In this document: positions 1 to 48,414 of the stretch, one piece after another
How the letters are laid out: each line of letters begins with the position of its first letter
How positions within the stretch are numbered: position 1 is the first letter of the stretch
Source: Schmidtea nova
Taxonomy: Eukaryota
Length of the DNA stretch: 64,000 bases
Direction: 5' to 3'
Assembly (NCBI GenBank): GCA_044892505.1
Contig: CM097882.1
Span: 336,350,001 to 336,414,000, forward strand
Notes under the pieces: model-generated
The model's input: the letters and a program-made list of their open reading frames with translations, nothing else
Databases searched by the model: none
Told to the model about the DNA's origin: nothing
Program-made: the position numbers and the translations under genes

Positions 1-1236
1 TAAAATCAATAATGTTTAAGTTAAAAAATTGTATTATTGTGAATTTATGGTGCCTTTTAAAGTAAAATTTGGTATACTATTTTAAAATAATATTATATTT
101 CATCTAGTGACAATCAATTTATTTTCACATGAAATTCAAAGATTATTATATTTCGTCTAGCAAAACATTTAAGTATTTTAATTAAAATAATTAATTGTTA
201 CCCTTGTGTATGATAAAAACCATTTTACATAAAAAGTAAAAATGCAAATAAAGTACATATATTAAATTCAGCACTAAGAAAAGATATTGGTAAGCAGTAT
301 TTGTCACTGACATGGATGACCACAACGCTGGTTTATTGGAGTCATGATCATTAGACATTGTCGCGGATTGTTGATTAATTGGGATTTGTCGATTGGATTA
401 ATTGTTTTGGATAATTGTTAGATATTCAAATCTGTCAAATAGATTAAAGTGATAAGACGTTGTTGCTAAGATTTCCGAACTAAGTTTCCATCTGTGTTTT
501 TGAAATTGAGGGCTATGAAAAGAATTAAGTTCAGCAGATCACTTAACTTAAAAATTTACTTGTTTTGCCAATAGAGAGAAATGATTTGCGTAGAAAATTA
601 TGCTTGGTGAATTTGAATGGTGTTCGGCTTGTTGTTGATTGAATGATGGATTGAAACAAATTGTTTCGGAATATCAATTAGTTATAAAAGTAAATTAGTT
701 ATAAATATAAAAATGAAAATAGAAAAAAAACCCTAATGTAGCATTAAAATATTTTCACAAATTAAGAATTAAAGTTTTGATTTTATCGTAAATGCAAATG
801 TAAATTAAAAATTTTATTTTAGAATACTTTCATTAATAATTAACATAAATTATAATATAAGTAAAATTTAATGTTTTATTAGTGTTTTGATGCTCGGAAT
901 GATTTATTTGAATGCAATAATAAATTTATAGTTAGGTAGAATATTAATGTTGAATTGCCGATAAAATTTTGTTGAATGCTTAAAGATAAATCGTCGAAGA
1001 AGGGGACAAAATGGGCAAGAAACCTTCTATCGGTAGCCCTTGGACCCAGGAGATATTCGGTCAATCATAGTTTCGTATTGACGACGCTCACTGATTGCGA
1101 ATACCCACCCACTTGTTACAGTACCAACGTTACATAGTGACGGGTAACAAGGTGGTAATTTCAATATTTTATGTGTTGGGTTGTTGATGAGAGCCATGGT
1201 AACGTCAAGGTCGTATTGACAATCAACAACCCACCA
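1..1236 (+). repeat. 3' part of the 5' LTR (truncated by the window start)
   Basis: No mismatch or indel found by eye versus 20807-22042; identity stops exactly at ...CAACAACCCACCA. Confidence 0.85.
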
Positions 1237-1246
1237 TATAAAAATT

Positions 1247-1264
1247 TGGGGGCTCAGCCGGGAA
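1247..1264 (+). promoter_or_regulatory. Primer-binding site, tRNA-Pro-like
   Basis: TGGGGGCTCAGCCGGGAA versus the canonical tRNA-Pro PBS TGGGGGCTCGTCCGGGAT (15/18), 10 nt after the LTR end. Confidence 0.75.
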
Positions 1265-2865: not shown

Positions 2866-3819
2866 ACGAATTCGATGTTATGTTATTTGATTGAGAATGA
2901 CTGAGGTATGACCCCTGTAATTTTATTTTTGTTGGCAAAAAAGGACATGGAAAGTATCGGGTCTGAAAGAAATAACAACGAAAATAGATCAATACGTGAA
3001 TTAATTGTTTTAATTAATACAAGTAGAGAATGAATGATATAATCTAATGAGTTTGAAGTTTGAATGTTGAAAAAGATAGATTGTTGAAGTCAGAATGATG
3101 CATGGTGATATTGGAATGTTGATCGCGACTCAATTCGGGAATCGAAAGCGGGAATAACTCTAAAACCTTATGAAACCATAAAATAAAATCTAACCACGAC
3201 TTAAAAACAAATAACGATACAAAATCAAACAAGAAAAAGTGAGACTTAACGCAAATATGAAAATTTTGAGATGCACAAAATTAGGACCCCAATAAAAGGA
3301 GATGTTATATGACCATGGGATGGAGTCCACACGAACCACATAGAGAATAAATTTTTGAATACACAAAAATTGCTTCCAGTAAACGAAAAATTACCAAAAT
3401 TGTGAATACCGTAAATAAAAAATATAATTATTTTAAAATTGATAAAAAGTGCAAAAATCATGAAAAAATTGTGTAAATAAATGTTTAATTATTTTTTTAT
3501 TTAGAAAATATTAGTATATTAAAAATTTAAAAAATCATAAAAATTATGTACATAATGGCTGATTATTGTAATATTTTATTCGAAAAATATCGAATATGGA
3601 CGAATGGAGAAAATTATAAAAATATAAAAATATAAAAAATATGTATAAAAATGGCTGATTATTCTGTTAACAGTAGTTTTGAAAAAATACAAAAATATAT
3701 AAAAAATTATAAAAATTCGTGTAAATAGCTGTTGAAGTTTTAGTATTTATTTTTCGTTCAAATCATAATGAATGGTTAATTCAAAAAGTTATAAACACCA
3801 GTCATCATGAATATTTTAG

Positions 3820-4302
3820 ATGGAATCGATTGAGCATATTTTACTACGAATCGAGTCGTTTTTCGATTTTGAGAATGACCCATTGCGGGTGTTGAGTGAG
3901 AAACTTGAACGAGTAAATGGAATAAAAGATGAGTTATTGTTGAATCCTAGACCACAACCTGAGAACCTAATAGTGATTGCAGGAATTGTAGGAACAACAA
4001 ACGATGTTTCGTTAGAAACAATTTACGAATTACAACGATTGCGACTGAATAATCCAAATTTTAATCTAAAAATACAAGAATGGATTGGTAAAATCGATAA
4101 AATCATGGACAAGCTAGAGAGATCGATAAATCAACAGATCGATTCGTTTGAAGGATGCTATATTTGTCGACAAAAAGAAGCGAACATTTTGTTCATGCCA
4201 TGTGGGCATTTGTGTTATTGCCAGCCGTGCTCTAGAGAAATAAAGCGATGCGTAATCTGCAAACAGACAATTGATGACAAAATCGTCGTATTCTGTTCGT
4301 AA
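3820..4302 (+). CDS. 160-aa protein with a C-terminal IAP/MDM2-type RING finger (putative E3 ligase)
   Basis: CYICRQKEANILFMPCGHLCYCQPCSREIKRCVICK; TTTTAG lies immediately before the ATG; intact ORF. Confidence 0.85.
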   Translation: MESIEHILLRIESFFDFENDPLRVLSEKLERVNGIKDELLLNPRPQPENLIVIAGIVGTTNDVSLETIYELQRLRLNNPNFNLKIQEWIGKIDKIMDKLERSINQQIDSFEGCYICRQKEANILFMPCGHLCYCQPCSREIKRCVICKQTIDDKIVVFCS

Positions 4303-4631
4303 AGAATGTCGTTCGAAATAAACGTTTTAGTCGTGTTGAACTTCGTCGATCATCCAGTAATACAAACCGTTATAAAATTAAATAAACAAAAAACATTAGG
4401 TAATTAATAACTGAGAATCGTGAAAAAACATAACAAGTAACGGCTAATGCCGAAAAATCAAACATTAGGAAAATGGGAATTTGTGGCAAAGTTATTTTCT
4501 TTTCTTTTTGAATTTTCTTTATTATTATTATTATAAATCCTCCTCATCATTATTATATTGAACCGAATTTCATTACTATAATCTTTCTTATTACCATTAT
4601 TATATTGATTATCATTATTATACTGATCATT

Positions 4632-5200
4632 ATATATATAAATATGTATGAATTAGGACGAGCAATAAGTAGCGTTATAGGAGTTGATTTTATAAGGAGA
4701 ATCTTCTGAAATAGAGCGATAAATGAGTGTCTGAGTAGGAAACAGGAAAATAGTACACAAATTCATAACTGAGCTATCAAAAGATAGTACGCCAAATTTT
4801 AACAGAGCTATCAAAAGATAGTACGCCAATTTTTTTATTATTGTTGAAAAATTAGTAGACAACAAACGGGGAAAAACCTGATCACCTTAAGGAGAAAGTG
4901 TAGAATAGGCCCCATCGCAAATGTTGATAAATTTCGTTTGTGACTGATCACCACAAATTGCGAAACGAGTTGACGCGATTTTTACGATTTTGAATTAGGT
5001 GAAAGGGCTAAACCCGTAATGTTCGTCTTATACACCAGTTTGCCAAGGCATGATTGGTACACTGAGGTAGAAGACAGTAACATAAGTAAGGAGAAAGTTG
5101 CTGAGAAAATTAGATGCAGATTTTAGAAAGTCGAAAGAGTAAAAAGCGAATTTCGATGATTATAGTAGATGATAGTTTAAATAAGAAAAGATTCTACCAT
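4632..5200 (+). pseudogene. Possible decayed ORF of unknown product
   Basis: Protein-like reading (...RDFYDFELGERAKPVMFVLYTSLPRHDWYTEVEDS...) interrupted by several TGA/TAG; no family recognised. Confidence 0.25.
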
Positions 5201-5343
5201 GGTAGTTAAGGAATCGATTCATAATTGAGAAGTAGTAGAACAATTTGAGAAAAACAGTCAGCAACAGCGAATTTAGTTAAAAATTTGAGAATAGGGAAAC
5301 GAGTGATTGAATAGCATAAAGAGAATAATCGAAGACGGCCGAG

Positions 5344-6118
5344 AAAAATTGAGAAACTTTGAGAGTTCATGTATGTGAGAGACTTTGAGAGTCCAGAAAA
5401 TTGAGAAACTTTGAGAGTTCATGTATGTGAGAGACTTTGAGAGTCCAGAAAATTGAGAAACTTTGAGAGTTCATGTATGTGAGAGACTTTGAGAGTCCAG
5501 AAAATTGAGAAACTTTGAGAGTTCATGTATGTGAGAGACTTTGAGAGTCCAGAAAATTGAGAAACTTTGAGAGTTCATGTATGTGAGAGACTTTGAGAGT
5601 CCAGAAAATTGAGAAACTTTGAGAGTTCATGTATGTGAGAGACTTTGAGAGTCCAGAAAATTGAGAAACTTTGAGAGTTCATGTATGTGAGAGACTTTGA
5701 GAGTCCAGAAAATTGAGAAACTTTGAGAGTTCATGTATGTGAGAGACTTTGAGAGTCCAGATAATTGAGAGACTTTGAGAGTCCAGATAATTGAGAGACT
5801 TTGAGAGTCCAGGTAATTTAGAGACTTTGAGAGTCCAGGTAATTTAGAGACTTTGAGAGTCCAGATAATTGAGAGACTTTGAGAGTCCAGATAATTGAGA
5901 GACTTTGAGAGTCCAGGTAATTTAGAGACTTTGAGAGTCCAGATAATTGAGCGCTCTGGGAGAGACTTTGAGAGTCCAGATAATTGAGAGACTTTGAGAG
6001 TCCAGATAATTGAGAAACTTTGAGAGTTCATGTATGGGAGAGACTTTGAGAGTCCAATGTTTGTGAAAATTGAGAAACTTTGAGAGTTCATGTATGCGAA
6101 AGACTTTGAGAGTCCAAT
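5344..6118. repeat. Minisatellite: about 30 x 26-bp monomers, the left part organised as a 52-bp dimer
   Basis: Core ACTTTGAGAG; GAAAATTGAGAAACTTTGAGAGTTCA + TGTATGTGAGAGACTTTGAGAGTCCA repeats with period 52 (5395 to 5447); 26-bp variants follow after 5760. Confidence 0.95.
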
Positions 6119-6886
6119 GTTTGTGAATATTGTCGAGAAATTTAGGAAAAACGTTTGAGAAATAGAATTAAATAAAACTGCAGTTATAATTTTGTTATGA
6201 TAGAGAGAAACGTTGAACGCGAATACTTAAGATGTAGTAAGAGAAACCGTTAACAAGAGCAGACAAAGATATCGAGAAATACCTAAGAAATAAAATAATG
6301 GCCATGAATAGATAATGAACAAGACATTTTTTTTATAACCTCGAATGCCGAGATGAATATGAAAACGAGTCGACAGGATCCTATTATTATTATAGTATTA
6401 TTATTGTTATTATTATTGTTATTATCAGGGTATAGATAACTGATACGACCATATAGATAATTATTACGAGATATAGATAATTTAAAATCTGAGCTCAGAA
6501 TAAAAGGGGGGTAAATGGCGTCGATGAAGAAGCGATATTTTTATTTAGATTGTCCAACAGATCAAAGTCAAGCCAAGAGATAGTCAAATCAATCAGTTAT
6601 TGAAGAGGTATATATAGAAGAAAAGAAGAAAAAGAAGTCTAATTGAAAAGGAAAGAAGTAAAAGAAAATAAATCAAAGAAGATCCAATTGAAGATAAACG
6701 AGAGATCAGCAATCGATATTAAACGCAAATTGATAATACTACCAAACCAACCAAGTTCGTAAAGTCGAAAGATAAAGAGTCAAATCTATTAAAAACGACG
6801 AAAGGAAATTACAAAGAAACAAAGCTGATAAATAAAGAAGAAAAATCCACAATATTTGAAAGTTTGTAGCCGATTTTCAGAAAGAA

Positions 6887-9800
6887 ATGGAGGAGAATCA
6901 GAAAGTTACCAGTGCAAACTCAGAAGATAATTTATTAGAAGAAGAGCAGAAAATAACCAGCCCAAACGTAGAAGATAATTTACAGGAAGAAGAAAAAGAA
7001 GTAGTAACAATGAAAATGCAACTACAACGGAATATCGAAGGAAAAGTAAATGAAATGATAACCGAATTATCAGACGTTGAAATCGAAAGAAAGGGAAATG
7101 TATATGAATTTTCAGTAAAAGATATGGAGGGAGAAGAAAAGAAGAAGTTTGTGGAGAAATATAACCGAAAAAGAAGAGAAAGAAGAAGCAATGATGATAC
7201 CTGTAGCATGGACGAGAAATGGGATGAATCTACGACAATCAAATTAGAAGAAGTGGCACAAAGATTGTTAAACATTACCATAGAAGAAATGGCGAAAATG
7301 AATCAGAAATCGGAAGAAAAGAGGAAATCAGCGAAGCTCGAAAGATTAAGACAAACAGAAACGTCAAAGACCGAACGATTAATCAGTAACTTAAGCAAGC
7401 GTGCAGGAAATCAATGTGAAACAACAACTGAATTACTAAAATGGGTTATAAAAAATAGTGCAAATATATCCAACATGAGATTGATAGTGAAAGAAATCGA
7501 GAAATGCAGACGTTTATGCCCTTGGTATTCAACACAATTTGATGACATCATGAGAAAATGGAAACAACTGGAACAAACAAATGATGATCCACAGATGTGC
7601 AGATTGGAAATTCAGTTTCCGAGTCTAGAAGAAATAAAGATGAATGTAGCATTAACAACAAAGATCAAAGAGATAAAAGAGAGATTACCATTCAATTTAC
7701 CATTTCACTTGAAATATGATGGAGAATCGCTGGATGATGATATAGAAATCGGTGTAACCCCGATACAAATCGAAACAAGTAATAATTTAACTGTCGATAA
7801 AATTGCAGGAAGCGAGTTGACCAGAAAAGCGAGAGGTGAAGATGACCCCGAGACAACGATAATTGCAATGATGAAAACTCCAGCTGGACCAACACTTACA
7901 AGTAACATCGAAGTTAATGGCGTAAAAATAGACGCGATGATAGATACTGGCGCAAATATATCAGCAATAGATATCGATATGATACCAGAAATGTTACGGC
8001 TATGCATCGAGAAAACATCAGTAGACGTAATAACATGCAGCAAAGAATCTGTTAATATCGTTGGAAAGATATGGACAGACATCGAATACAGAAATGTAAA
8101 AATATCAACTTATTTGACAGTAATAAAACAACTGGGTGCCTCATGCATTATTGGAACAGACTTAATACCAAAACTGTTAAAAGGATCTGTAATTGATTTG
8201 AATACGATGAAGTTGGAACACCAAATTGAAGAGAATTACACAAGAGAAACAATGATAGAACAATCAAATCCAGAAACAACCAGAAAAGGACAAGTATATA
8301 TGTTTCGAGAGAATAAAAATGATGATTGGTTACATCGTATATTAACTACGAGCAGAAAAGTAAATCAGCCAACAACAATATCTGAACAACCTAAGGTAGT
8401 TGACGATGTAAAAATGGAGCACCGCAAAAAGATGGAATTGATCATTGAGATTACCAAAGAAATTATGCCAGAATGGTCAAAAAGTAAAAATCTATTTGAA
8501 ATATTGGGAGGAGCAAGCTTAATGGTTGAGGAATATGCCAAAGGAAATGAGACGACAGAAGCGATGAATACCATAAAAGAAAGATTACCAATACTATTTA
8601 CAATTGCCAGTTTTAAAGATGAGATACCATTATATCACGTAATAAAAAGTGGGAATGAACAGAGAATGTTTGAAATCATAAAACTCATGGAAAAGTGTAA
8701 ACAACATACCAACACGAAAAACTGGAAAGATCAAACACCCTTGATGGTAGCAATTGAAAAAGGAGGATCCAAGAAACTCATAGCAGAACTGATGAGAACC
8801 GGATCAAGTTTTAAAGAAAGAGATGATAAAAATGAAACGGTGTTATCATATGCAGTGCAAGCAAATAACCATCAAATAATCAAATATATTATGTCAAATG
8901 CGACAGAAGAAGATATTGAAGTGCTCAGTTCAGATCCAAATCCATTAGTAAATGCAGTGAACAAAGATGCAGACGAAACAACAGCCAAAATGATTAAATG
9001 GTTACATCCAGTTACGCACGAAGGAGTGATAAATGTCAATGACAGATTTGAAGACGGTGAAAATATGATAATGAAAAGAGCCATGAAAAGAAAATGGAAA
9101 ATGTATAAAACGATTAAAGCATTGCTGCGAAGACCTGATTTCAAATTTACAAACAACAAAAAAGAAAAAGAAAGAATTGGATCTAAAAGACATGAATTAT
9201 ATCAGCAAGTCATCATATGGAAAGAACATATAAAAGAAAGCAGAATTCACCGAAGTTGGAACAATGCCAAAGATGAGATAACCAAGAGAGCAAATATAAA
9301 AGCCGAAGCAGATGAAATAGCTAAAAGGTACGAGGAAATAATAAAATTAATAAATGTCGAGGACGACATTTTAATCAGAACCGAGGGTGGTGCTGATGAG
9401 CACAATGAGCCTGACGATGAAGATGAAGGGAATAACAACAACAAAACAAAGAAAGATGACAATGAAAGTATCAACAGAAACAATGACAAAGACGAGAAAG
9501 ACGATGGAAAAAGCAATAACGATGAAATTGGGAACAAAGGTGATGAACCCAAGCAAGAAACTTCAAATTATGAAAAACGAACAGCATGTCTACATAAAAC
9601 TCGAATAAAAGACATAATATTGCTGAAACTGAGGCTGTCAACATTGAAAGGAACGGAAGCCGATGATAAAAGAAAACCAGTACAAGTATTAACATCAGGA
9701 GCAGATAATAAAGAAGCATGTTGGAGTAGCATCAATTTGCAAAGTAAAGGAGATAATCCAGTCAAAAGTCAACGAGCAGAAGGAGGAGAAATCCGAATAA

Positions 9801-9997
9801 ATGGATTAAAACGAGAAACAAAATATAAAATCTGTGTTTACAAAAAGAAAGCATCACAAGAAATGTTTAGAACACTCGTATGTCAGATAGTAACACATAA
9901 TGGTTCAAAAGTCACCCAAGAAGACATAAAAGTCATATTAACCGACGAGCCAGATGAGAACATCAGGATGTCGTCGAAACGCAAGTTGTCAGAGTAA
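6887..9997 (+). CDS. 1036-aa multidomain protein: charged N-terminus, ubiquitin-like domain (?), retropepsin-type aspartic protease, ankyrin repeats, D/N-rich linker, possible FN3-like C-terminus
   Basis: IEVNGVKIDAMIDTGANISAI (DTG at 7943) plus IIGTDL; ankyrin repeats KDQTPLMVAIEKG and KNETVLSYAVQANN; Ubl-like LEIQFPS...TKIKEIKERL...LKYDGESLDDD; FN3-like IRINGLKRETKYKICV. Confidence 0.85.
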   Translation: MEENQKVTSANSEDNLLEEEQKITSPNVEDNLQEEEKEVVTMKMQLQRNIEGKVNEMITELSDVEIERKGNVYEFSVKDMEGEEKKKFVEKYNRKRRERRSNDDTCSMDEKWDESTTIKLEEVAQRLLNITIEEMAKMNQKSEEKRKSAKLERLRQTETSKTERLISNLSKRAGNQCETTTELLKWVIKNSANISNMRLIVKEIEKCRRLCPWYSTQFDDIMRKWKQLEQTNDDPQMCRLEIQFPSLEEIKMNVALTTKIKEIKERLPFNLPFHLKYDGESLDDDIEIGVTPIQIETSNNLTVDKIAGSELTRKARGEDDPETTIIAMMKTPAGPTLTSNIEVNGVKIDAMIDTGANISAIDIDMIPEMLRLCIEKTSVDVITCSKESVNIVGKIWTDIEYRNVKISTYLTVIKQLGASCIIGTDLIPKLLKGSVIDLNTMKLEHQIEENYTRETMIEQSNPETTRKGQVYMFRENKNDDWLHRILTTSRKVNQPTTISEQPKVVDDVKMEHRKKMELIIEITKEIMPEWSKSKNLFEILGGASLMVEEYAKGNETTEAMNTIKERLPILFTIASFKDEIPLYHVIKSGNEQRMFEIIKLMEKCKQHTNTKNWKDQTPLMVAIEKGGSKKLIAELMRTGSSFKERDDKNETVLSYAVQANNHQIIKYIMSNATEEDIEVLSSDPNPLVNAVNKDADETTAKMIKWLHPVTHEGVINVNDRFEDGENMIMKRAMKRKWKMYKTIKALLRRPDFKFTNNKKEKERIGSKRHELYQQVIIWKEHIKESRIHRSWNNAKDEITKRANIKAEADEIAKRYEEIIKLINVEDDILIRTEGGADEHNEPDDEDEGNNNNKTKKDDNESINRNNDKDEKDDGKSNNDEIGNKGDEPKQETSNYEKRTACLHKTRIKDIILLKLRLSTLKGTEADDKRKPVQVLTSGADNKEACWSSINLQSKGDNPVKSQRAEGGEIRINGLKRETKYKICVYKKKASQEMFRTLVCQIVTHNGSKVTQEDIKVILTDEPDENIRMSSKRKLSE

Positions 9998-10149
9998 CCA
10001 GTGGAAGGAACAGTGTATATAGTGTATAAAATTATATTGTATTATAAAAGTAGAATATATTTGTATAATAAAAATTTAAAAATCCAAAAAATTGAATACC
10101 TAAAAACTGGGAAAAACAAATGATAATATTGTGTAATTATTTGACAGAA

Positions 10150-10785
10150 ATGAATCCGAACAACGAGAGTCAAAGTTATCAAACATCAGTTCCAACGTTC
10201 AATGAACCATCAAATCAAATTCAGTTTCCAGAAGATACCAATATACGAGAAAGAGAAAGGTCACTGCAGACCCCAGTAATCGAAAATGAAACGCAAAATC
10301 CAACAATTGATGATAGAAATCTGATATACCAAGTCGAAATTCCACTGTTTGATGAAACCATGAACCCAATTCAAACGACATTCGTATTAAATCAACAACT
10401 AACAAATAGCCAGACTCAATCAATATCAGCTCCGATGGTTTATCAGCAGACAATGACGCAAGAGTTATCATGGAAAACGCAATGTGAATTATTAAGCAGG
10501 ATGTTGAATCAAGCCTACGCACAATGGAAAAACGAACAAGCTTTGTTAACAGAAAGTGTAAACAGAAATTTATTATATCTTGCTAAAATGGAAGAACAAC
10601 AACAAATGATAATCCAAAAGGACCAGAGAATTGAATGGTTAACAAGACATACGGAGTGGCAAACAAACGAAATCAGAAGATTGAATGAGACGCGAGAAGA
10701 AGTTAGAGCATGGTATAACTGGTTAGACAATTTTCCAGAACCGGTTCGAGAGCCTGACTCGACGGGAAGGGATGAACTATTATAA
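10150..10785 (+). CDS. Q/T/P-rich N-terminus plus coiled-coil protein (about 211 aa), unknown function
   Basis: Open frame 10120-10785; ATG 10150 follows TTTGACAG-AA; heptad-like Q/E/L-rich C-terminal half; contains PIQTT. Confidence 0.7.
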   Translation: MNPNNESQSYQTSVPTFNEPSNQIQFPEDTNIRERERSLQTPVIENETQNPTIDDRNLIYQVEIPLFDETMNPIQTTFVLNQQLTNSQTQSISAPMVYQQTMTQELSWKTQCELLSRMLNQAYAQWKNEQALLTESVNRNLLYLAKMEEQQQMIIQKDQRIEWLTRHTEWQTNEIRRLNETREEVRAWYNWLDNFPEPVREPDSTGRDELL

Positions 10786-10879
10786 AAATTTAAAACCAGT
10801 GTAAATAAAATGTAAAAATGTGAATATGAATAAAACTTGGTATAAAGAGCAGAATGAAAAAATTGTAAATTATTTTAGA

Positions 10880-12283
10880 ATGCAGACCGAGAATCAGCAG
10901 AAACAAGAAGAATTGATCGAACTATATCAGATACTACAGAGACAACGGATAGAACCAACAGAATTTCAAGAAAGATTTAAATGTAAAGTATGTAGAAATT
11001 TATTGATAGAACCCAGACAAACTGAATGTGGATGTCGAATATGCACTAATTGCGTGACGAAAGTAATACGAACAAAACAGAAGCTATGTCCTGAATGTGG
11101 TGAAGCAATAATAGACCAATTTGACCAAACCAGACCAGATATCGCAATGAATCGGGAAATAATGAACGCAGCAACAACCTGTCCAAACAAACCATGTGTA
11201 TGGAGTGGGCCAATAAAATGGATCGCCAAACACCTTTATAATTGTGATGATACGAAAGCTAAATGCAAGTGGTGTGAAGAAGAAATGTTGAAGAAAGTCA
11301 AAGATAGTCATGAGGAAATGTGTGAACAACGACAGGAAATATGTGAGTTTTGCAACGAAACAGACGCTTGGATAGTGTTAAAAGATGAGCATTGGAATAT
11401 AGAAGAAGGGCAAGTATGTGACGAGTATGAAGGTAATTGTAATCAATGTGGAATGGCAGAAAACGTGAAGCTAAAAGAACATTGGGAAATATGCGAAAAG
11501 AAGCCTACTGCATGTCCACTAAAATTATTCAATTGCAAAGTAAGATTACCAAAAGAGGAAATACAAAAGCATGTAGATGAAAATAGTGTAAATCATTTGA
11601 GAACCGTTGTGGAAGCTATTGGAGCAACCGCACTGGTAATTGGAGAAGCCAACACAGAAATAAAATCTCACAAAATCATGATACAAGAGATGTTGGATAC
11701 GAGAGGAAATTTTGAAAGAATAAGAGAACAAATGATCCAAAAAATGATACTATTAGACCAGAAAATAGCAGAAATATCAACAATCCAACAAAGATTGGAA
11801 AGCATATTGCCAACAATGGAAGAACTACCCGTCACACCCTACTATTGGAAAATCACAGAATTTACAGAGAAATTGAGACTAGCAAGAGAAGGAGGTCAAC
11901 GTGTATGGACAAGTCCACCTTGTCATAGTTGGAAACATGGTTACAAGCTTAGATTCAAAGTATATCTAACGGGAGACGGACTAGGAGCCGGAACTCATTT
12001 ATCTGTATATTTTCAAATATGTAAAGGAGATTATGACGATTGGTTAGAATGGCCCTACGATTGCGATATAGCTATGAGGATCGGAACAAAGGAAAACAAC
12101 GTTCGGGAAGTATTCAGACCAAACTTGAAGAAGGTAGAAGCAGCTTATAAGAAGCCGATCGAAAACTACAACGTAGCTGTAGGAAATCCACGTTTTATTG
12201 CATTACATTATTTAACCACAGAACAATCATTATATTTGGTAAATAATATCCTGTATCTGATTATCGAAGTGAGGAAGCCGTAG
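10880..12283 (+). CDS. TRAF-family protein (RING, TRAF zinc fingers, coiled coil, MATH), TRAF2/3/5-like
   Basis: RING CKVCRNLLIEPRQTECGCRICTNC...CPEC; CPNKPCVWSG zinc finger; MATH YYWKITEF...GYKLRFKVYLTGDGLGAGTHLSVYF...LEWPY. Probable start 10880 after TTTTAG-A. Confidence 0.93.
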   Translation: MQTENQQKQEELIELYQILQRQRIEPTEFQERFKCKVCRNLLIEPRQTECGCRICTNCVTKVIRTKQKLCPECGEAIIDQFDQTRPDIAMNREIMNAATTCPNKPCVWSGPIKWIAKHLYNCDDTKAKCKWCEEEMLKKVKDSHEEMCEQRQEICEFCNETDAWIVLKDEHWNIEEGQVCDEYEGNCNQCGMAENVKLKEHWEICEKKPTACPLKLFNCKVRLPKEEIQKHVDENSVNHLRTVVEAIGATALVIGEANTEIKSHKIMIQEMLDTRGNFERIREQMIQKMILLDQKIAEISTIQQRLESILPTMEELPVTPYYWKITEFTEKLRLAREGGQRVWTSPPCHSWKHGYKLRFKVYLTGDGLGAGTHLSVYFQICKGDYDDWLEWPYDCDIAMRIGTKENNVREVFRPNLKKVEAAYKKPIENYNVAVGNPRFIALHYLTTEQSLYLVNNILYLIIEVRKP

Positions 12284-12502
12284 CGAAGATGGAAAAAGTG
12301 TAAATATGTCTGTATTATAATGAAGTATCTGTATCATAATGTACAAAATAAAATTAAAAAATCACAAAAACATAAAAATTAAAAAGAAATATAAAAATGA
12401 GAAAAACCGAAAAATCAAATATAAAAATGAGAAAAATCAAAATGTTGTAAATATAGAAAACAAAAATTGTGAAAATATAACGGAGAAAATATTGTAGATA
12501 CA

Positions 12503-13672
12503 ATGACTGAAAGGAAGATCGTGAAAATACGAGAAGATGACAGATCATTCAAAAGTTTGTGCGAATTAATGAAAAGAGGTAAAGAAAAGAAGTCAAAACC
12601 AATTACCTCAGAATTGATTTATTGCCAATTTACACGAACAATATCAAATGTCCCCAAGGAAAGAAATTATGGCAAATTCAAAACTATCGATGAAACGTTG
12701 AAAAATGAGAACCGAAGATATATAACCTTTCTACAACAAGACAATTTCTATGAGAAGCAATACAGAAAATTCGCCAAAGAGGGTTTGTATTTTGCAGGGA
12801 CAATCGAGAAACCCGATAAAGTAACTTGTGTATTTTGCAGAATTGAAATAGAACCTTGGAGAATTAACGATGATCTACTAACAGAACATAGAAAACTTTC
12901 ACCCACATGCCCGTTTGTGTTAAAGGCATACGAAAAACCAAGAAAACCAGCAACAATGAACAATGATGAAGAAGAAAAACCCAAAATAGTAACGATAACT
13001 TCAACAGGTCCAGCAAAGATACGATTCATAGAAATTGATCCAAAATATACGATTAATGGGAGAACTGACACCTTTGCAGATAAAAAGATGGGTATCAGAT
13101 TAGCAATAGAAGGTTTTTATGCAATAAATGAATCAACCGCTGAATGTTCAGAGTGTGGAATACAATATCAATTACCAAAAGAAGAAGGAGAATACCTGAA
13201 ACACAACGAATATTGTAAATATGGAGAAGAATTATATGAAGACGAAGAACCGATCAATTATAAAAACCCAGAGATGCCTGTTAATGAATTATTAGTAGAT
13301 AAGATATTAGACGAACCACGAACTCAAAAGGCAATGGAACGTACCGGCAAAAGCGAAATATTTGTGAAAGAAGTTATCAGAGAGAGATTGAGAAGAAATG
13401 GAGAAACATTTGGATCAACCCTAGAATTTTTCAAAGCTATAATACAGTTCACCAGAAAATCTAAAGTTGTCAACCCAGAATCATGTATCAAGAAAGTTAT
13501 ATTAAATAAACACCCCTGTTCAATCTGTTGGATAAAGAAAGTGGAAGTTATTCATTTACCGTGTGGACATCTGTTGGCATGTGAAAATTGTAGCAATAAA
13601 TTGAGATTGTGCTCAATGTGCAGGAAACCGGTCGACAAACGGATCAAGGGATTTCGTTATGCCGATCAATAA
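12503..13672 (+). CDS. Inhibitor-of-apoptosis (IAP/BIRC-like) protein: BIR, degenerate second BIR, C-terminal RING
   Basis: BIR FAKEGLYF...DKVTCVFC...W...DDLLTEHRKLSPTCPFV; second R.TF...LAIEGFY...CSEC...H...C; RING CSICWIKKVEVIHLPCGHLLACENC...CSMCR. Confidence 0.93.
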   Translation: MTERKIVKIREDDRSFKSLCELMKRGKEKKSKPITSELIYCQFTRTISNVPKERNYGKFKTIDETLKNENRRYITFLQQDNFYEKQYRKFAKEGLYFAGTIEKPDKVTCVFCRIEIEPWRINDDLLTEHRKLSPTCPFVLKAYEKPRKPATMNNDEEEKPKIVTITSTGPAKIRFIEIDPKYTINGRTDTFADKKMGIRLAIEGFYAINESTAECSECGIQYQLPKEEGEYLKHNEYCKYGEELYEDEEPINYKNPEMPVNELLVDKILDEPRTQKAMERTGKSEIFVKEVIRERLRRNGETFGSTLEFFKAIIQFTRKSKVVNPESCIKKVILNKHPCSICWIKKVEVIHLPCGHLLACENCSNKLRLCSMCRKPVDKRIKGFRYADQ

Positions 13673-13806
13673 TCCAATCAAGCAACCTTGTAAATAAATT
13701 GTAAAAATTTTAACTATAATCGATGTATACAAGTATTATTTAATAAGCATGAGCCACAAAAAATGTATAAACAAAAGGAAATTACCCATGTTATTATTAT
13801 TTCAGG

Positions 13807-15354
13807 ATGAATATACAACAATTGATAAACATCCTAGATCAGGAGATGGCCAAAAGACAAGAACAACTAAATCAAATGAGAAATTATGAACAAAGAATGG
13901 AAGCCATCCAAGAGAACGTTAAAATGATTGAGAAACGAACCCAAGAGATCAATAAAATAAAAGAGGAAAATGAGGAACTACGAAAAATAATAATCGACAA
14001 GGCACATATCGAAGCTGAACTAGACAATTATAAACGAGAGTACAGGGAAATGGAGAGAAAACTCGAGCACGAACAACGGAAGTCGGTACCGTTGAAAAAT
14101 CAAGCGAGATTAAGAAAAGAAGAGCTCGAAACTTATAAAAGAGATACCGAAACAAGGTACGACAACTCCATAAGATTCTATCAGCAGCAACTCGAAAGTG
14201 AAAGAAACAGATATGAAGCCATGAAAAAGAAATGGGAAAAGTGTCGAGATGAAGCATTTGTTTTGAGAGGACAACCTCAAAAGAAGCTTAAAGTCAGAAC
14301 AAGAAACATTGAACCTGAAAGCGAACAAGAAAAGATCATTAGAAAAGTTAAAGCAGAGGCTAGGAAATGGAAACAAGAACATCAAGATTTATTGGAAATG
14401 GCTCGACACAGAAAAATGCTACACGAAGAATTATTAAGACGGAGAGACGTTCAAATCGAGGCTCTGAAAGAGGAATGTCATTGGTATGCAGACATACGTC
14501 ATGAGGAAACGGAGAAACTCAGAAAAGAAATATTCCAGTTGAAAACGAGCGGGCAATTCAGAGAACGAAGCATAAAGCATCAAATAAAGTGGCTAAAAGA
14601 ACAAGCCAGAACATGGAAAAAGACCTGGAAAAGAACTCGAGACGAACTACGAGAATTCCCAAAGAAGCTGATGTCAATAAATGAAGCAGAATTGTGGGAA
14701 AATGCAGAAAAGCAAGAGATAGAAAACAAAGAATTAAGACGGCAAGTTCAATTAAAAACTGAATGGAATCAAAGGAGAATGAAATTTACCAGGAATCAAG
14801 AAGCTCGTATCAAATATCTGGAATTTGAAAATAGGCAATATGATCAACAGAAAAACATGGACGATAGAAGTATTGAAGAATTGACAATCGAATTGACTAT
14901 TGCAAACCGTGAAGTCAACGGATATCGAGGAACAAATACGCATAAAGACATTGTCATTCAACACCAGCGACGGCAGATAGAAGAAACAAAGGCCGAATGT
15001 GAGAAAGCGATCCAGCAATCGCAGTATGAGATTGAAATGGCTATCCAAAGTTTGGAAGAAAATCGCCAAAACTATGAAAGAGAGATTGAAAGGTTGAAAA
15101 ATATGGAAAATACAAGAGAGCTCGAGATAGAAAAGGAACAGCTGAGTGAAGAACTCGATTACATGACATATTTGCTAGATGAAGAGATAGAAATCTCAAG
15201 AACTTTACGAGAGAGAGTTCAGAGCCTACAAAATCAACCTCCAATAATTCTATGGCCACTATATCCAACACCAATACAACCTGTACATTTGGAGCAAGAA
15301 AATCCTCAAATCGAAGATGAAGGGTTCGGAGAAATTGAAGAGACGTTTGTATAA
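13807..15354 (+). CDS. 515-aa long coiled-coil protein with a Pro/acidic tail, unknown function
   Basis: Intact E/K/R/Q-rich ORF; TTTCAG-G precedes the ATG. Confidence 0.8.
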   Translation: MNIQQLINILDQEMAKRQEQLNQMRNYEQRMEAIQENVKMIEKRTQEINKIKEENEELRKIIIDKAHIEAELDNYKREYREMERKLEHEQRKSVPLKNQARLRKEELETYKRDTETRYDNSIRFYQQQLESERNRYEAMKKKWEKCRDEAFVLRGQPQKKLKVRTRNIEPESEQEKIIRKVKAEARKWKQEHQDLLEMARHRKMLHEELLRRRDVQIEALKEECHWYADIRHEETEKLRKEIFQLKTSGQFRERSIKHQIKWLKEQARTWKKTWKRTRDELREFPKKLMSINEAELWENAEKQEIENKELRRQVQLKTEWNQRRMKFTRNQEARIKYLEFENRQYDQQKNMDDRSIEELTIELTIANREVNGYRGTNTHKDIVIQHQRRQIEETKAECEKAIQQSQYEIEMAIQSLEENRQNYEREIERLKNMENTRELEIEKEQLSEELDYMTYLLDEEIEISRTLRERVQSLQNQPPIILWPLYPTPIQPVHLEQENPQIEDEGFGEIEETFV

Positions 15355-15445
15355 ATAATAAAAGTGAATGTAAAGTGTAAAAAGAAATTGAAATGTAGTG
15401 TAAAAAGAAAACGTTGTGTAAAAAGAAAAAGTTGTAAAATATATC

Positions 15446-15492
<47 letters not shown>

Positions 15493-15656
15493 AAATAAAA
15501 AGTAGAAAAAATAAAAATTCAATAAAAATTAGAAAAAATGAAAAACAAATAAAAATTAGAAAATGTTAAAAATGATAAAAATGATAAAAATGATAAAAAC
15601 AAAAACAAAATTAATAAAACTGTAGAAAAGAGTTATGAAAATTCGAATTATAGAAA

Positions 15657-16232
15657 ATGAGATTATTGAAGCAAAGATCAGAACCAGAACAACAAACGAT
15701 ATCAAAAGAAAGATTCAAAAAATGGAAAAGGGCAACAGAGCAATATTATCAAGACCAAATAGACCAATTGAAGGAAGTAGTGAGCAAAGATAGAAAATAT
15801 ATCGCGCAAATGGAGCAAGAGTGCGAGACGATGGAAATAATCAAGCGAGAAAATTATTTATTTCGCCAACAAAACGGTCTCACCCAAAAATATTGCGACA
15901 GACAGAAGCAAGAGATTGACAGACTCAAGAAGGAAATAAGCAGTGAACAGAACACTGATAATAAAAGGAGAATTAAGATCGAGTCACTACAACGATCATT
16001 GAAGAACAAACAGAAAAAGATTATCAAAAGAGAAAAACAGATAATAAAGTTGAAAAGTGAAATCATAGAAGCAAAATTCGATACGTTCAAAGCAAAGAAA
16101 GTTGTAGAAATCAAAACGGCAGAAAATTACGTCCTCAAAGAGCAAAGGCGAAAAGAAGCAGACGAGATTGCAAAAATGGGTAACTGGAAGCCAGAAAGTC
16201 CGCTAAAGCTAAATGAAGAGACGAAAGAATAA
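15657..16232 (+). CDS. 191-aa basic coiled-coil protein, unknown function
   Basis: Intact ORF; TTATAG-AAA precedes the ATG. Confidence 0.7.
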   Translation: MRLLKQRSEPEQQTISKERFKKWKRATEQYYQDQIDQLKEVVSKDRKYIAQMEQECETMEIIKRENYLFRQQNGLTQKYCDRQKQEIDRLKKEISSEQNTDNKRRIKIESLQRSLKNKQKKIIKREKQIIKLKSEIIEAKFDTFKAKKVVEIKTAENYVLKEQRRKEADEIAKMGNWKPESPLKLNEETKE

Positions 16233-16327
16233 AATATATCTAAACTCATGTAAATATCCCTGTAAAAATATAAAAGAGAAAATTTGAAAAATCATTAAAC
16301 AAATTTGAATCTATAAATCTATAGAAA

Positions 16328-17152
16328 ATGAGCAATCTAATGAGGATCACAACAACCATCGTGATAGCTATAATTACAAACTGCCGAAGCGAAGAAGCAT
16401 TGAGCCAATGTCAAGCAAGCCATCCATTTAGAAGATCCGATAGCATTTGTGCAAGCTATCAAGAAATTTGTATCACCAGAAATGAGGAGTGTCAACAGAT
16501 CCAACTACAATGTCAACAATGTCCAAAATCCAGAGAAGATTCAATCACTATTCTTAAACAGCTAAAAAACGAAACCCAACAATTAATCCAACTACAAATC
16601 TCCTTAACCCAAAGGAACAATCTTCAACTAAAGAAACAACTCGAAAGCCAATCATCCTTCAAACAGTTAACAACCGAACTAAAGAAATTGAGCAAGTTAA
16701 TAGAAAAATCTCTAAATAATAAAGATGAAGTTAATGAGGAAAGATCAAGTTTCACAGAAGAGTTAAATCAAAAACTGAAAAGTCAACTTCATCAGACCGA
16801 GAGAATTATAAAACAATTGATATTACCCGAAAAGCAAAGGGAGATTATCCCTAAACAAGGATCAACCAACAAAGACGTCAGAGACCGAGAAGCAGCCATC
16901 ACAGTCGTTCTACAAGGCCTCAGTCTTTTCACGGTCATAATGATCCTTAGCATTGTTGCATCAATCGGAGTAGAAAAAATGAAATTAGAGAAAGCAAAAA
17001 TCCAGTTGAATACCATTAAACGAATCACCCATGAAGACAACAACCCGTCAGAGAATTTTCTAAGATCAATATTTGAAGATCCAGTTCCAGAACCTCCTAA
17101 TCCTGAGACATCTACAACCTCGGTGCAGATGAATTATTTCTATAAACAATAA
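16328..17152 (+). CDS. 274-aa predicted type-I membrane protein (signal peptide, 6-Cys segment, coiled coil, TM, cytoplasmic tail)
   Basis: N-terminal ITTTIVIAIITNC; six Cys within residues about 27-65; hydrophobic AAITVVLQGLSLFTVIMILSIVASIGV; Pro-rich tail. Confidence 0.75.
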   Translation: MSNLMRITTTIVIAIITNCRSEEALSQCQASHPFRRSDSICASYQEICITRNEECQQIQLQCQQCPKSREDSITILKQLKNETQQLIQLQISLTQRNNLQLKKQLESQSSFKQLTTELKKLSKLIEKSLNNKDEVNEERSSFTEELNQKLKSQLHQTERIIKQLILPEKQREIIPKQGSTNKDVRDREAAITVVLQGLSLFTVIMILSIVASIGVEKMKLEKAKIQLNTIKRITHEDNNPSENFLRSIFEDPVPEPPNPETSTTSVQMNYFYKQ

Positions 17153-17744: not shown

Positions 17745-20700
17745 TGTTGGGCCAAAACCCAATTTGTTTTAATAAAGCGATAACCCCATAGGTAGAGAAC
17801 GCGCAAGATTCCATTTTAACCTTTGCTTCCATTAAAAAAATCCAACAATTAAGCGGAAAACACCAAAAGGTGAAGATGAATCAAAACACAGCAACCGGTA
17901 GAATGCGCGCTAACTGCGAATTTATAGATATTTCCACTGAAATCTCGAGAAAAATTAAAAGCAGAATGTTTGGAAGCTAGAATAGGCAAAAAACCCATGG
18001 AAAGTGCCCATAAAGAACAGAATTTTATCATAAAACCTTCAAGTGCAGAAAAACTAACACAATTCTAGAGGAAAATTGTGAATTTATCACAAAATTTCAC
18101 ATATAACAATAGAAAGAATTAATATGGATCGAAAATCATAAATTAAATCAAATCGAACAAATTTCGATTCAAACATAGAAATTTTGAATAAAAATAAATT
18201 ATTTATAGTTTATAAAAAATTATTATACAAAAATATGGAATTAATTTTCGGAAAATCATTAGAATTAATTTAGAAAAAATTAAGAGAAACTTCTAGAACA
18301 ATTTGTTTTATTGCACTACCGGAGATAGAGAAAATTTGATGGTATATATACCGCCATCAAAATGGCAGATTAGACAGAATTTTGTGGAAAATTTTTCTTG
18401 ATTAATTTGCGGAGAAATTGCGAAAAATAATTTTTGTGAAATCCAACTTGAGAATTTGATTGCAAGAAGAAAAGCTAATTTGATTTCAAGAAGAGAAGAG
18501 AAAAGCTAATATCAGAATTTGATTCCAAGAAGTTACTATCAGAAGTTGATTCCAAGAAAATTTGTGGAAAATTCGTTCCAAATTTCTAAGAAAAAATTAA
18601 TTTGTTTGAAAGAAATCGTAGCAGAAGTTAATTGGACAAACGTAAGGATTTGTTTGATTTTGGTTATTCTCATTGGGGATTGGAATGGTCGTCCATCATG
18701 CCTGACGATCATCCCATTCCCCCCTTTTTTATTTAATATGTTATTTGTCATTTTATTTATTATGGTCAATTTTATATTATTAAAGTATTTTCATGATTAA
18801 TAACTTAGTTTTTTTTTTTTTTTTTTGTTGTCATAATCATTATCACGAGCCACAATTTCCCAAAATAATTCAGGAAAGATCTCATTGAAATTCGAAAACT
18901 AAATTAAATTATGAAAATAAATAAAAATTTTTTTTTTTTATCTCCCATATCTTCTGACGATCCGTCCAGCCTTGGTTGTGCGGATCTGTTAGTAGCCTGG
19001 GTGGATCGTTGTCTGATTGGTAATCGGCCAGCCCATATTTCCACTTTAAGGTGAGGCTCATACATCCAAATTCGCGTCATCCCAACTGGGGAATCGCGGT
19101 TTGACCAAGAGCAAGGTTTTGTTATACTAATGATTTGTATTATAATAGAGTATCATATTTTTATTATCTACATAAGCAATTTCGTAATACAACATAATAA
19201 TTTCTACCTCATGTCTTGAAATCTAAAATAGGAAATATTATTGATTAAAAAGTCGACTCGTACTCACCTTCGCCTTCACACTCTCAACAACGTTCATCTC
19301 ATAAGAAAATGCAAGAAAAATGGATGCTGATGATGAAAAGAAAATGGTTCGAAATAATGCTCAAAGTCTAGAATAATGCTCATGAAGTGAAACAAATTGT
19401 GAAACAAGTATTGATTTAATCTGAATTAAAGCTCATTATGGTCTAAATAAGTTTTCCTGTGAATCTTGTTTTTCGAGAGCCTGAAATTCCTAAGTGAAGT
19501 GTCCCGAAAAATTCGCGTACACTTGGTTGGGAAATTCATGCTCAACAAAACCGAAATTTACTTTGCTTGAGGTTAAAAATATTCGCTGAAAAATTTGTAA
19601 CTTATTTTTATTTTATTTTTATTTAGCATATAAAATTTTTTAGATTAAATGCTTATTTAGATCTCGAATTTATGGATAAAAATTTATTATCATTTCATTT
19701 GGATCAGAAATAGAAATTTGCTTTTTATTATGTTGAAAAGATTTTATATGGAAAAATTGTAAACCAAATTTGGTTCCTAATGTTATTAATATATGAAAGA
19801 TTTTATCATTTCGTAAAATTCCCGAGAATTTGAAAATCAAAAGTTATATTAAACCCCATGAAAATTTAGATTGAAATTTTATTATTATATTAATAAATTT
19901 TATTATTTTATAAAAAATCTCAATTCGAGATTTTATAGAAATTTTTTTTATCTATTCTTAAAGTATAAAAATTGTAAATTCAAATCGACATTATAAAAAA
20001 TTATAAACCTTATCGTTAATTGTTTTTCGTAGAAATTTTAAAACTTAAAAATTTGTAAAAAAGTATTATGAGAATTGTTATTATTATTTCGATCTAAAAA
20101 TTATTATTATTATCTTGATCTAAAAATCATTACCATTAGTTTAATTTTAAATTTTTTTTTTATGTTAACTTAAAAAATATTTTATACAATTTATTTAATT
20201 TATAATATAACCCCCCACGACATCTTAAAATAATAATACATCACTCATTGCAAAGATTTACACCCTTTTCACTCAATAGCATCATCCATATTAATATACA
20301 AACAACATACACATAAAATACAATACACACACATGCACAGTACCATTCAATAACATCCAACAATCACATACACACCAACAAACCTTATCAAAATTCCACA
20401 CAGACATTCTAGTTAGAATCGTTCATCTAACCACACTCATAAGCACTCAATTGTTTTAAATCACTCATCATACAATCACACACAAACACAACAGTAACAA
20501 TAGGACACACAGTCATCATACTACACCTCATCCACCAATAAATTATTTACTCTCATCCAACATTCAAGTCAACATACAGACACATATAATCACATACAAT
20601 CTCCCGCACTATCAATGAAAAATTCATAATAAACCTGTAAAAGTGTATCAACAATCAAGCTCGAAATGATAGTATCCCACATCATACGTAAACATGCATA

Positions 20701-22042
20701 CCTCCAAAAAGACAATGCCAAGGTTTCATCCATTCACCCACCACAAACATTTGGTGTGGAACCTTTTTATTTGTAACGGATATTAGGAAGTTTTCAAGAT
20801 TGCCTTTAAAATCAATAATGTTTAAGTTAAAAAATTGTATTATTGTGAATTTATGGTGCCTTTTAAAGTAAAATTTGGTATACTATTTTAAAATAATATT
20901 ATATTTCATCTAGTGACAATCAATTTATTTTCACATGAAATTCAAAGATTATTATATTTCGTCTAGCAAAACATTTAAGTATTTTAATTAAAATAATTAA
21001 TTGTTACCCTTGTGTATGATAAAAACCATTTTACATAAAAAGTAAAAATGCAAATAAAGTACATATATTAAATTCAGCACTAAGAAAAGATATTGGTAAG
21101 CAGTATTTGTCACTGACATGGATGACCACAACGCTGGTTTATTGGAGTCATGATCATTAGACATTGTCGCGGATTGTTGATTAATTGGGATTTGTCGATT
21201 GGATTAATTGTTTTGGATAATTGTTAGATATTCAAATCTGTCAAATAGATTAAAGTGATAAGACGTTGTTGCTAAGATTTCCGAACTAAGTTTCCATCTG
21301 TGTTTTTGAAATTGAGGGCTATGAAAAGAATTAAGTTCAGCAGATCACTTAACTTAAAAATTTACTTGTTTTGCCAATAGAGAGAAATGATTTGCGTAGA
21401 AAATTATGCTTGGTGAATTTGAATGGTGTTCGGCTTGTTGTTGATTGAATGATGGATTGAAACAAATTGTTTCGGAATATCAATTAGTTATAAAAGTAAA
21501 TTAGTTATAAATATAAAAATGAAAATAGAAAAAAAACCCTAATGTAGCATTAAAATATTTTCACAAATTAAGAATTAAAGTTTTGATTTTATCGTAAATG
21601 CAAATGTAAATTAAAAATTTTATTTTAGAATACTTTCATTAATAATTAACATAAATTATAATATAAGTAAAATTTAATGTTTTATTAGTGTTTTGATGCT
21701 CGGAATGATTTATTTGAATGCAATAATAAATTTATAGTTAGGTAGAATATTAATGTTGAATTGCCGATAAAATTTTGTTGAATGCTTAAAGATAAATCGT
21801 CGAAGAAGGGGACAAAATGGGCAAGAAACCTTCTATCGGTAGCCCTTGGACCCAGGAGATATTCGGTCAATCATAGTTTCGTATTGACGACGCTCACTGA
21901 TTGCGAATACCCACCCACTTGTTACAGTACCAACGTTACATAGTGACGGGTAACAAGGTGGTAATTTCAATATTTTATGTGTTGGGTTGTTGATGAGAGC
22001 CATGGTAACGTCAAGGTCGTATTGACAATCAACAACCCACCA
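17745..22042 (+). repeat. Complete 3' LTR, 4298 bp (family A)
   Basis: Starts TGTTGGGC at the same point where homology to 22057-26006 begins; ends CCCACCA; its last 1236 bp match 1-1236. Confidence 0.8.
18343..18350 (+). promoter_or_regulatory. Candidate LTR TATA box
   Basis: TATATATA in GATGGTATATATACCGCCATC; conserved at the aligned position of the sister LTR (22703-22710). Confidence 0.45.
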
Positions 22043-22056
22043 CAATTAATTAAATT

Positions 22057-31484: not shown

Positions 31485-31699
31485 AAAAGCACAAATTCAG
31501 GAACACTTCTCAAAAATTATATATTTGAAATCAAAATATTTATATAATTTAGTTAAACAAAATGTTTATGTACCAGGATATTAATAACAGTTTAAAATTT
31601 TATATTATTTTAAACTAAGATTGTTTTTGGAGTTAACTCGTCATTAAAATGACTTGTTGAAAATCTAATATCACTGAATAAAGTGAAAGTTTGAGGCAG

Positions 31700-31930
31700 A
31701 CTATGTTCCTTTAATACTTTGAGAAAATCTTCGATATCGGCTTTCTAGACCACTTCAATCATAGTTTCGAATTTTTGACGCTCACTGTTTGCGGACATCC
31801 ATCCATTTGTTGCATTTCGAACATTACATTGTGACGGGCAATAAGATGGTTAAACTAATGTTTTGTATACTGAGTTTTTGATGTGAACCATTACAACGTC
31901 AAGGTCATTTTGACGATCAACAACCAACCA
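31700..31930 (+). repeat. Terminal fragment of a third related giant LTR (family C)
   Basis: TCAATCATAGTTTC...GACGCTCACTG...GTGACGGG.AA...AACGTCAAGGTC...TTGAC.ATCAACAACC.ACCA, as at 1060-1236 and 25830-26006. Confidence 0.8.
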
Positions 31931-45880: not shown

Positions 45881-45978
45881 AGATAGGAATATTTTACATT
45901 AATTATCTGTAATAATAATAATAATAGTAATAATAATAATAATAATAACAATAAAAATAACAATAATAATAATAATAA

Positions 45979-48354: not shown

Positions 48355-48368
48355 TAATAATAATAATG

Positions 48369-48414
<46 letters not shown>

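Follow-up and report, generated by a model that had tools for sequence, protein, structure and literature searches.

A 64,000-nucleotide stretch of the Schmidtea nova genome (GenBank assembly GCA_044892505.1, contig CM097882.1, positions 336,350,001 to 336,414,000 of the forward strand; hereafter the window) carries a long terminal repeat (LTR) retroelement containing a row of eight open reading frames (ORFs), each with a splice-acceptor-like YAG at or just before its ATG. The element is 25.1 kb in length, has TG...CA ends and is flanked by a 4-bp target duplication (CAAT); both LTRs measure 4,298 bp and the 5′ and 3′ copies show 0 mismatches over 4,298 bp. An earlier reading made from the letters alone (the sequence-only reading) had placed the ORFs within a retroelement, and the paired 4,298-bp LTRs, together with domains assigned to the ORFs by Pfam search, bear this out. 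The features of the element are as follows:

1..1236, + strand: 3′ part of the 5′ LTR; the full LTR starts 3,062 bp upstream of the window
1247..1263, + strand: primer-binding-site-like stretch, 10 nt past the LTR end
3820..4302, + strand: ORF1, 160 aa, C-terminal RING finger (PF13920, E 1e-13); TAG abuts the ATG
6511..6549, + strand: donor-like and acceptor-like pair in the leader, predicted only, with a counterpart upstream of gag in the helper family described below
6840..6880, + strand: ORF2 intron, 41 nt, ending at the ORF2 acceptor; the donor reads GA, not GT, in this copy
6887..9997, + strand: ORF2, 1036 aa, retroviral-type protease (PF00077) and ankyrin repeats (PF12796)
9998..10149, + strand: spacer 2/3, TGTATATA 16 nt past the stop, second TGTA, AATAAA, acceptor at 10147/10148
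10150..10785, + strand: ORF3, 211 aa, no known family, no Pfam match
10786..10879, + strand: spacer 3/4, TGTAAATA 14 nt past the stop, AATAAA, acceptor-like site at 10878/10879
10880..12283, + strand: ORF4, 467 aa, TRAF-like, with RING, zinc finger and MATH
12284..12502, + strand: spacer 4/5, TGTAAATA 15 nt past the stop, AATAAA, acceptor-like site at 12497/12498
12503..13672, + strand: ORF5, 389 aa, IAP-like, with BIR (PF00653, E 2e-15) and RING (PF13920)
13673..13806, + strand: spacer 5/6, TGTAAATA 16 nt past the stop, AATAAA, acceptor at 13805/13806
13807..15354, + strand: ORF6, 515 aa, coiled-coil-like by eye, no known family
15355..15656, + strand: spacer 6/7, TGTA 14 nt past the stop, several AATAAA, A-run, acceptor-like site at 15653/15654
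15657..16232, + strand: ORF7, 191 aa, coiled-coil-like by eye; BRE1 match sub-threshold only
16233..16327, + strand: spacer 7/8, TGTAAATA 16 nt past the stop, acceptor at 16324/16325
16328..17152, + strand: ORF8, 274 aa, no known family
17745..22042, + strand: 3′ LTR, 4,298 bp, identical to the 5′ LTR

From the end of the YAG to the ATG the distances are 0, 6, 2, 1, 5, 1, 3 and 3 nt for ORF1 to ORF8, in agreement with the sequence-only reading, which had put a YAG 0–6 nt before all eight ATGs (3820, 6887, 10150, 10880, 12503, 13807, 15657 and 16328). Its estimate of spacers of about 95–300 nt among the last seven ORFs likewise holds: from ORF2 to ORF8 the stop-to-ATG intervals are 152, 94, 219, 134, 302 and 95 nt, with ORF1 located 2.6 kb upstream of the other seven. 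It had further proposed that the chance rate of such YAGs be estimated, and this proves to be about 15% per ATG (a YAG within 0–6 nt precedes 62 of the element's 383 other ATGs and, counting both strands, 323 of 2233 in the window), with a joint chance of about 1e-6. Shuffling the 40 or 90 nt upstream of each ATG gives 8e-7 or 4e-7; allowing two tries for ORF3 and ORF4 gives 1–3e-6, and restricting the calculation to the six ORFs whose quoted ATG is the first in frame gives 1–2e-5. In this copy an in-frame ATG precedes the quoted one in both ORF3 (10120) and ORF4 (10826), the later ones being the choice of the sequence-only reading; in two intact copies elsewhere (L114 and L124) ORF3 is 211 aa long and begins at the ATG that follows the YAG. 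In-frame TAG stops account for three of the eight YAGs, and the definition of an ORF slightly favours such YAGs.

The spacers share a second feature. Behind the stops of ORF2 to ORF7 a TGTA starts at 16, 14, 15, 16, 14 and 16 nt; it takes the form TGTAHATA in five of the six and is followed 7–12 nt on by a second TGTA; AATAAA is present in every spacer. ORF1 lacks a post-stop TGTA and that of ORF8 lies at 22 nt. A hand estimate at the shuffled rate, for a motif picked post hoc, puts the chance that five of the eight stops have TGTAHATA in one 3-nt slot at far below 1e-10. Only the post-stop position is striking: across the window the motif occurs 21 times against 15.6 in shuffles, which is not above expectation, and AGGTAAG-like sites are fewer than in shuffles. 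UGUA pairs ahead of AAUAAA are known 3′-end elements and UGUAHAUA is a PUF site; from its letters, the TGTA pair with AATAAA may constitute a 3′-end signal.

The element exists in about 1,500 copies. The unspliced form of the ORF6 start occurs 1,518 times in the genome and, out of 1,639 candidates for a 1-kb probe, the 40 matches scored are 99–100% identical; copy and junction counts come largely from exact-match pattern searches and are lower bounds. Since the RNA of a retroelement is copied into DNA, spliced RNAs are detectable as genomic copies. Each post-acceptor sequence was therefore searched in the genome with preceding letters unlike the acceptor. These patterns miss joins that have T at the tested positions or altered exon starts, so that counts of zero carry little weight.

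For ORF2, 154 matches lack 6840–6880 (100 were listed and seven aligned). Position 6841 is other than A in 1,256 copies and T in all 100 listed; because other copies carry T here, 6840–6880 is a GT...AG intron. The GA donor is common to 68 copies, including that in the window, which thus belongs to a young 68-copy lineage that has lost the ORF2 donor and kept the acceptor and the ORF. Many of the 154 joined copies probably descend from few events. The ORF3 acceptor (10147/10148) is joined in one copy (L082), from the second post-stop TGTA and with exact loss of 10024–10147 (GT...AG). ORF6 gave 24 junction matches against the 1,518 unspliced copies; in 20 of the 21 inspected a GT...AG stretch is missing exactly up to 13805, and one is ambiguous. 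The donors are 13701 (14 copies), 13690 (two), 13765 (one) and 10988 within ORF4 (three), the last skipping 2.8 kb. Joins from 13701 are found on three deletion backgrounds and those from 13690 on two, which suggests that the ORF6 joins arose repeatedly; a join could also have passed from copy to copy by recombination. The 90 ORF8 matches comprise 81 unspliced A-run variants, seven joined copies, one ambiguous case and one non-splice deletion, and all six joined copies inspected lack exactly 16250–16324 (GT...AG). ORF7 has a single, ambiguous, joined copy (L158).

The joined fraction is thus about 10% at ORF2 versus 1.6% at ORF6. Spacers are lost piecemeal: one copy (L104) lacks the ORF2 and ORF8 introns while keeping the ORF4 and ORF6 acceptors. 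Two candidates (L083 and L110) were removed from the counts as deletions that are not GT–AG, and three ambiguous joins (L107, L158 and L159) were dropped; to match L158 and L159 to a donor at 8096, one substitution must be allowed in each, and eight of nine aligned homologous copies have T there. Four contig runs of unknown kind, aligned over 6200–15440, pointed to the ORF2 and ORF6 joins; with spacer coverage like that of the ORFs and a Tn5-like adapter in one run, they were taken to be probably DNA and not evidence of expression. GT...AG stretches that end at the acceptors of ORF2, ORF3, ORF6 and ORF8 are precisely missing from some genomic copies, which shows that these four acceptors are functional. 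Every inspected junction has its donor within the spacer or an ORF upstream.

The eight ORFs have no Pfam match to reverse transcriptase (RT), RNase H, integrase, Gag or Env, protease being the only such domain. Nothing above the cut-off was obtained for ORF3, ORF6, ORF7 or ORF8; ORF8 has, by eye, a hydrophobic N-terminus and a hydrophobic stretch close to its C-terminus. None of 43 candidates was a homologue of ORF3, and ten exact look-ups in protein databases found none of the sequences present. The 150 database matches listed for ORF2 are generic ankyrin proteins apart from one match to the protease region; ORF4 matches fish TRAFs, the best matches being TRAF3/5 (22–34% identity), and no named Burro protein surfaced among the protein-database matches of the element's ORFs.

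A partner was found in the same genome. From ten LTR–primer loci sampled (eight listed), the junction at one of them (L130) led to a second family with 1,139 candidates, whose LTR end, primer site and pre-LTR sequence are shared with the eight-ORF element. The polyprotein of this helper family, as read from pieces of copies that are broken, runs in the order Gag with three CCHC knuckles, MATH, Env of the mononegavirus-like fusion type, protease, RT, RNase H, integrase, ankyrin and fn3. Two blocks of ORF2 align with the helper pieces, 134 aa at 65% identity and 555 aa at 40%, and on these alignments ORF2 is a trimmed helper polyprotein in which Gag, Env, RT, RNase H and integrase are missing; the MATH domain of ORF4 is only 37% identical to that of the helper. 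The TGTA arrangement recurs 14 nt past the polyprotein stop in one helper copy (L137), and the TAG/ATG of ORF1 is kept in the helper lineage at L130 despite diverged upstream letters and lost at L154. Because the element lacks RT, RNase H and integrase and has its LTR end, primer site and pre-LTR sequence in common with an RT-bearing family, it is most readily interpreted as a non-autonomous satellite, old and still open, of a giant Burro-type LTR retroelement, and would likely depend on the helper for mobilization.

Upstream of gag in one helper copy (L156:8153–8256) there is an ATG, a canonical donor within a few bases and an acceptor about 100 nt on; the satellite retains the donor/acceptor pair (6511–6549) but not the ATG. 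The arrangement recalls the splicing of env in gypsy-type elements. A genomic probe for the helper-form leader junction returned 0 copies.

What do the spacers do? The reading we favour, and the one that comes closest to an even call, is that they are operon junctions yielding single-gene mRNAs, each downstream ORF being capped by the host through spliced-leader (SL) trans-splicing. The YAGs would then serve to release single-gene mRNAs, an idea to which the stereotyped post-stop motif, overlooked in the sequence-only reading, lends support: cleavage and polyadenylation would take place behind one ORF, the following ORF would take its cap from the host SL, and some full-length genomic RNA would escape cleavage and be copied by the helper. 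In uncut RNA a nearby GT would occasionally capture the acceptor, which would give rise to the spliced genomic copies. Strong acceptors, promiscuous and rarely used donors, the piecemeal loss of spacers, the loss of the ORF2 donor and the 3′-end-like cassette fit spacers in which one mRNA finishes and another begins, and the four ORF6 donors on several deletion backgrounds, the 24 joined copies against 1,518 and the donor-less 68-copy lineage argue that there is no dedicated donor.

Published work on the host mechanism is consistent with such a scheme. SL trans-splicing occurs in Schmidtea species (PMC10899757), and in flatworms a weak GT upstream can take over an SL acceptor for cis-splicing (PMC4558846). 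Spacers in flatworm operons are of 300 nt or less (PMC12582326); here the genes from ORF2 to ORF8 are co-oriented and 94–302 nt apart, and each is preceded by an acceptor or acceptor-like site, in use at ORF2, ORF3, ORF6 and ORF8, ambiguous at ORF7 and unseen in use at ORF1, ORF4 and ORF5. In flatworms the SL acceptors inside operons show the least cis-splicing, and those of first genes show more (PMC12582326), a pattern that the fractions at ORF2 and ORF6 match.

Several observations weigh against SL resolution. All proven splices are cis, and no SL junction occurs among the genomic matches listed (100 of 154 for ORF2) or among the 24 loose contig ends listed (of which there are 936 more) over 6200–15440, in runs of unknown kind. 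ORF1 and ORF4 have 0 spliced copies and ORF5 only one small deletion that is not GT–AG. The last three letters of flatworm SLs are ATG (PMC12582326), and at four of the eight ORFs this ATG would not be in frame. The first in-frame gag ATG of the helper in L156 has no YAG within 6 nt. Finally, the first post-stop TGTA itself serves as a donor (13690 and 16250) in spliced copies, and as such would out-compete the SL unless cleavage takes it away first. The sequence-only reading had proposed release of single-gene mRNAs by either an SL or an LTR leader: its 3′ splice sites are real at ORF2, ORF3, ORF6 and ORF8, and neither SL-like nor LTR or leader sequence is seen in any inspected junction.

That all proven splices are cis, the 2.8-kb skip from within ORF4 to ORF6 included, would fit a scheme in which one non-coding LTR or leader exon is spliced to each acceptor, with alternative poly(A) sites in the spacers, after the logic of the adenovirus late unit or complex retroviruses. 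Such a scheme is compatible with the same acceptors and 3′-end cassette, and donor-like sites exist in the LTR (window 288–294) and in the leader (6511), the latter corresponding to the canonical donor just past an ATG in the helper. Against it, no leader donor is joined to ORF3 to ORF8 among the genomic matches listed, and none of the 90 ORF8 matches has a leader join, though such an RNA would be copyable if the donor lay downstream of the primer site; a donor within the LTR would be invisible in genomic copies, the spliced RNA being without a primer site. We consider a common leader possible but unlikely. Use of the first post-stop TGTA as donor at ORF6 (L037 and L040) and ORF8 (the six inspected copies) would instead fit ordinary spacer introns, the removal of which would leave one polycistronic mRNA with computed gaps in a narrow range of 16–21 nt, translated by termination and re-initiation. 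But the donor is not fixed (ORF6 uses four, and ORF3 the second TGTA), spliced copies are few and have lost their spacers singly, AATAAA is present in every spacer and the cassette also follows the polyprotein stop of the helper; six serial re-initiations past long ORFs would, moreover, be inefficient. Ordinary introns seem to us improbable.

It could also be that the YAGs are chance or start-codon context, that the junction copies are template-switch deletions and that the ORFs have their own promoters or are silent. Deletions near ATGs that are not GT–AG do exist (L083 and L110), three joins are ambiguous (L107, L158 and L159), and AT-rich sequence makes YAG and AATAAA common. This sits poorly with the joint chance of about 1e-6, the exact GT...AG ends, the convergence of four donors on one AG, the scant room for promoters in spacers of 94–152 nt and the main ORF6 join, which has no microhomology because most copies read CAG/AATG; we regard chance as very improbable. 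Returning to SL resolution, we take the arrangement to be a real feature, a variant of a Burro-type element with operon-like workings and a candidate member of the SL-resolved operons. A fuller account, plausible yet somewhat doubtful, is that a selfish satellite, now in about 1,500 copies, broke up and re-stocked a polyprotein into an eight-gene operon for anti-apoptosis and ubiquitin signalling and evolved a cassette of 3′-end signal and acceptor in each spacer, with mRNAs released by the host SL and uncut RNA packaged by the helper.

LARD-type non-autonomous LTR derivatives have long LTRs, no RT or integrase and high copy number, as here, but the internal region of the present element is coding, with eight open ORFs. 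The adenovirus major late unit and complex retroviruses also express many ORFs from one promoter with an acceptor per ATG; a common leader donor is their hallmark, whereas none was found joined in this element. According to PMC6431247, the Burro/GYPSM1 elements of planarians have long LTRs, thousands of copies and RING, MATH/TRAF, BIR and ankyrin domains, a description matched by the 4,298-bp LTRs, the length of 25.1 kb, the 1,518 copies of the ORF6 start and the additional RING, MATH/TRAF, BIR and ankyrin domains; the domain order of the helper is that described for Burro (PMC6431247). Sequence homology was found only to the helper of the same genome, and kinship with the named Burro1–4 elements is putative. 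In contrast to Burro, described there as one giant polyprotein with accessory ORFs (PMC6431247), the element has eight separate ORFs, lacks matches to Gag, Env, RT, RNase H and integrase (the helper has all four of protease, RT, RNase H and integrase), and carries an acceptor before each ATG, which the available text of PMC6431247 does not mention for Burro.

PMC12582326 and PMC8629364 describe SL-resolved operons of flatworms and nematodes with co-oriented genes, an acceptor just before the ATG (spacers of 94–302 nt in the present case) and little cis-splicing at inner acceptors, with more at the first. The difference is that the row lies here in a mobile element whose full-length RNA must survive, and SL joining is its putative route. 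Cer1 of Caenorhabditis elegans is likewise gypsy-type and makes a spliced, SL1-trans-spliced mRNA in addition to unspliced genomic RNA that must skip its splice sites (PMC3315495); it has one subgenomic mRNA as against an eight-ORF row with its own acceptors. BURRO1 is transcribed, with no mention of trans-splicing in the available part of PMC8532177, and 597 partial SL loci lie in LTR and LINE elements of parasitic flatworms (PMC12582326). PMC8629364, PMC2770079, PMC11410931 and PMC6681497 otherwise provide general background only. No account of acceptors before Burro ORFs or of an operon in an LTR element was found in a literature search that did not extend to the original Burro and planarian SL3 papers.

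If the favoured reading is correct, the element is a mobile, self-spreading animal operon, and shows how a transposon can exploit trans-splicing. To make several proteins, LTR elements usually rely on polyproteins, on frameshifts or on a single spliced env mRNA. The present one appears to repeat an RNA-processing cassette for its eight genes, which would illustrate how operons can originate and spread. The IAP, TRAF and RING cargo bears on the open question of host cell-death manipulation by Burro elements. In its spliced genomic copies the element keeps an archive of its own RNA processing, and spacers of 94–302 nt are short enough for direct reporter tests.

The stretch at 1247..1263 is a putative tRNA-Pro-like primer-binding site; a tRNA gene search of the window found none. 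The LTR end together with this stretch occurs 2,086 times in the same genome (helper family included), and a variant primer-site pattern had 0 matches. In these 2,086 copies the gap of 10 nt between LTR end and primer-site-like stretch (window 1237–1246) is unusually large. About four 62-nt tandem repeats follow the primer site (1265–1508), each starting like its 3′ end, and an array of 26/52-nt tandem repeats occupies 5345–6116 in the ORF1/ORF2 interval; helper-lineage leaders (L130) have the same array. Common deletion subfamilies lacking ORF4 and ORF5 (TRAF and IAP; 10580–13655 and 10378–13676, in L022, L023 and L040) are still multi-copy. The helper has a second non-autonomous derivative (L130, L134, L140, L142, L146 and L148), in which the leader is fused to the integrase C-terminus, ankyrin and fn3-like repeats about 5 kb past the primer site. 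ORFs adjoining L130 (L131:4191–9720) resemble, by eye, the DNA polymerase B region of Polinton/Maverick-type elements.

Older LTR pieces of the same clan, 73–88% identical, flank the element (window 22043–22671, 25755–26006 and 31699–31930; L001:946–1198), and it seems to be inserted in a related LTR in inverted orientation. From this related family 20 LTR ends were sampled: 19 had no primer site and one a decayed one, 19 of the 20 being solo or 3′ LTRs. Further along the window lies a separate, broken gypsy-type element with matches to RT, RNase H and integrase (37324–41084). Beyond it, at 43390–50234, 1.6-kb direct repeats surround 29-nt and 573-nt arrays in an inverted arrangement, and the region also holds a weak SWIM-finger ORF (46269–46898); the whole is possibly a Mutator-like remnant.

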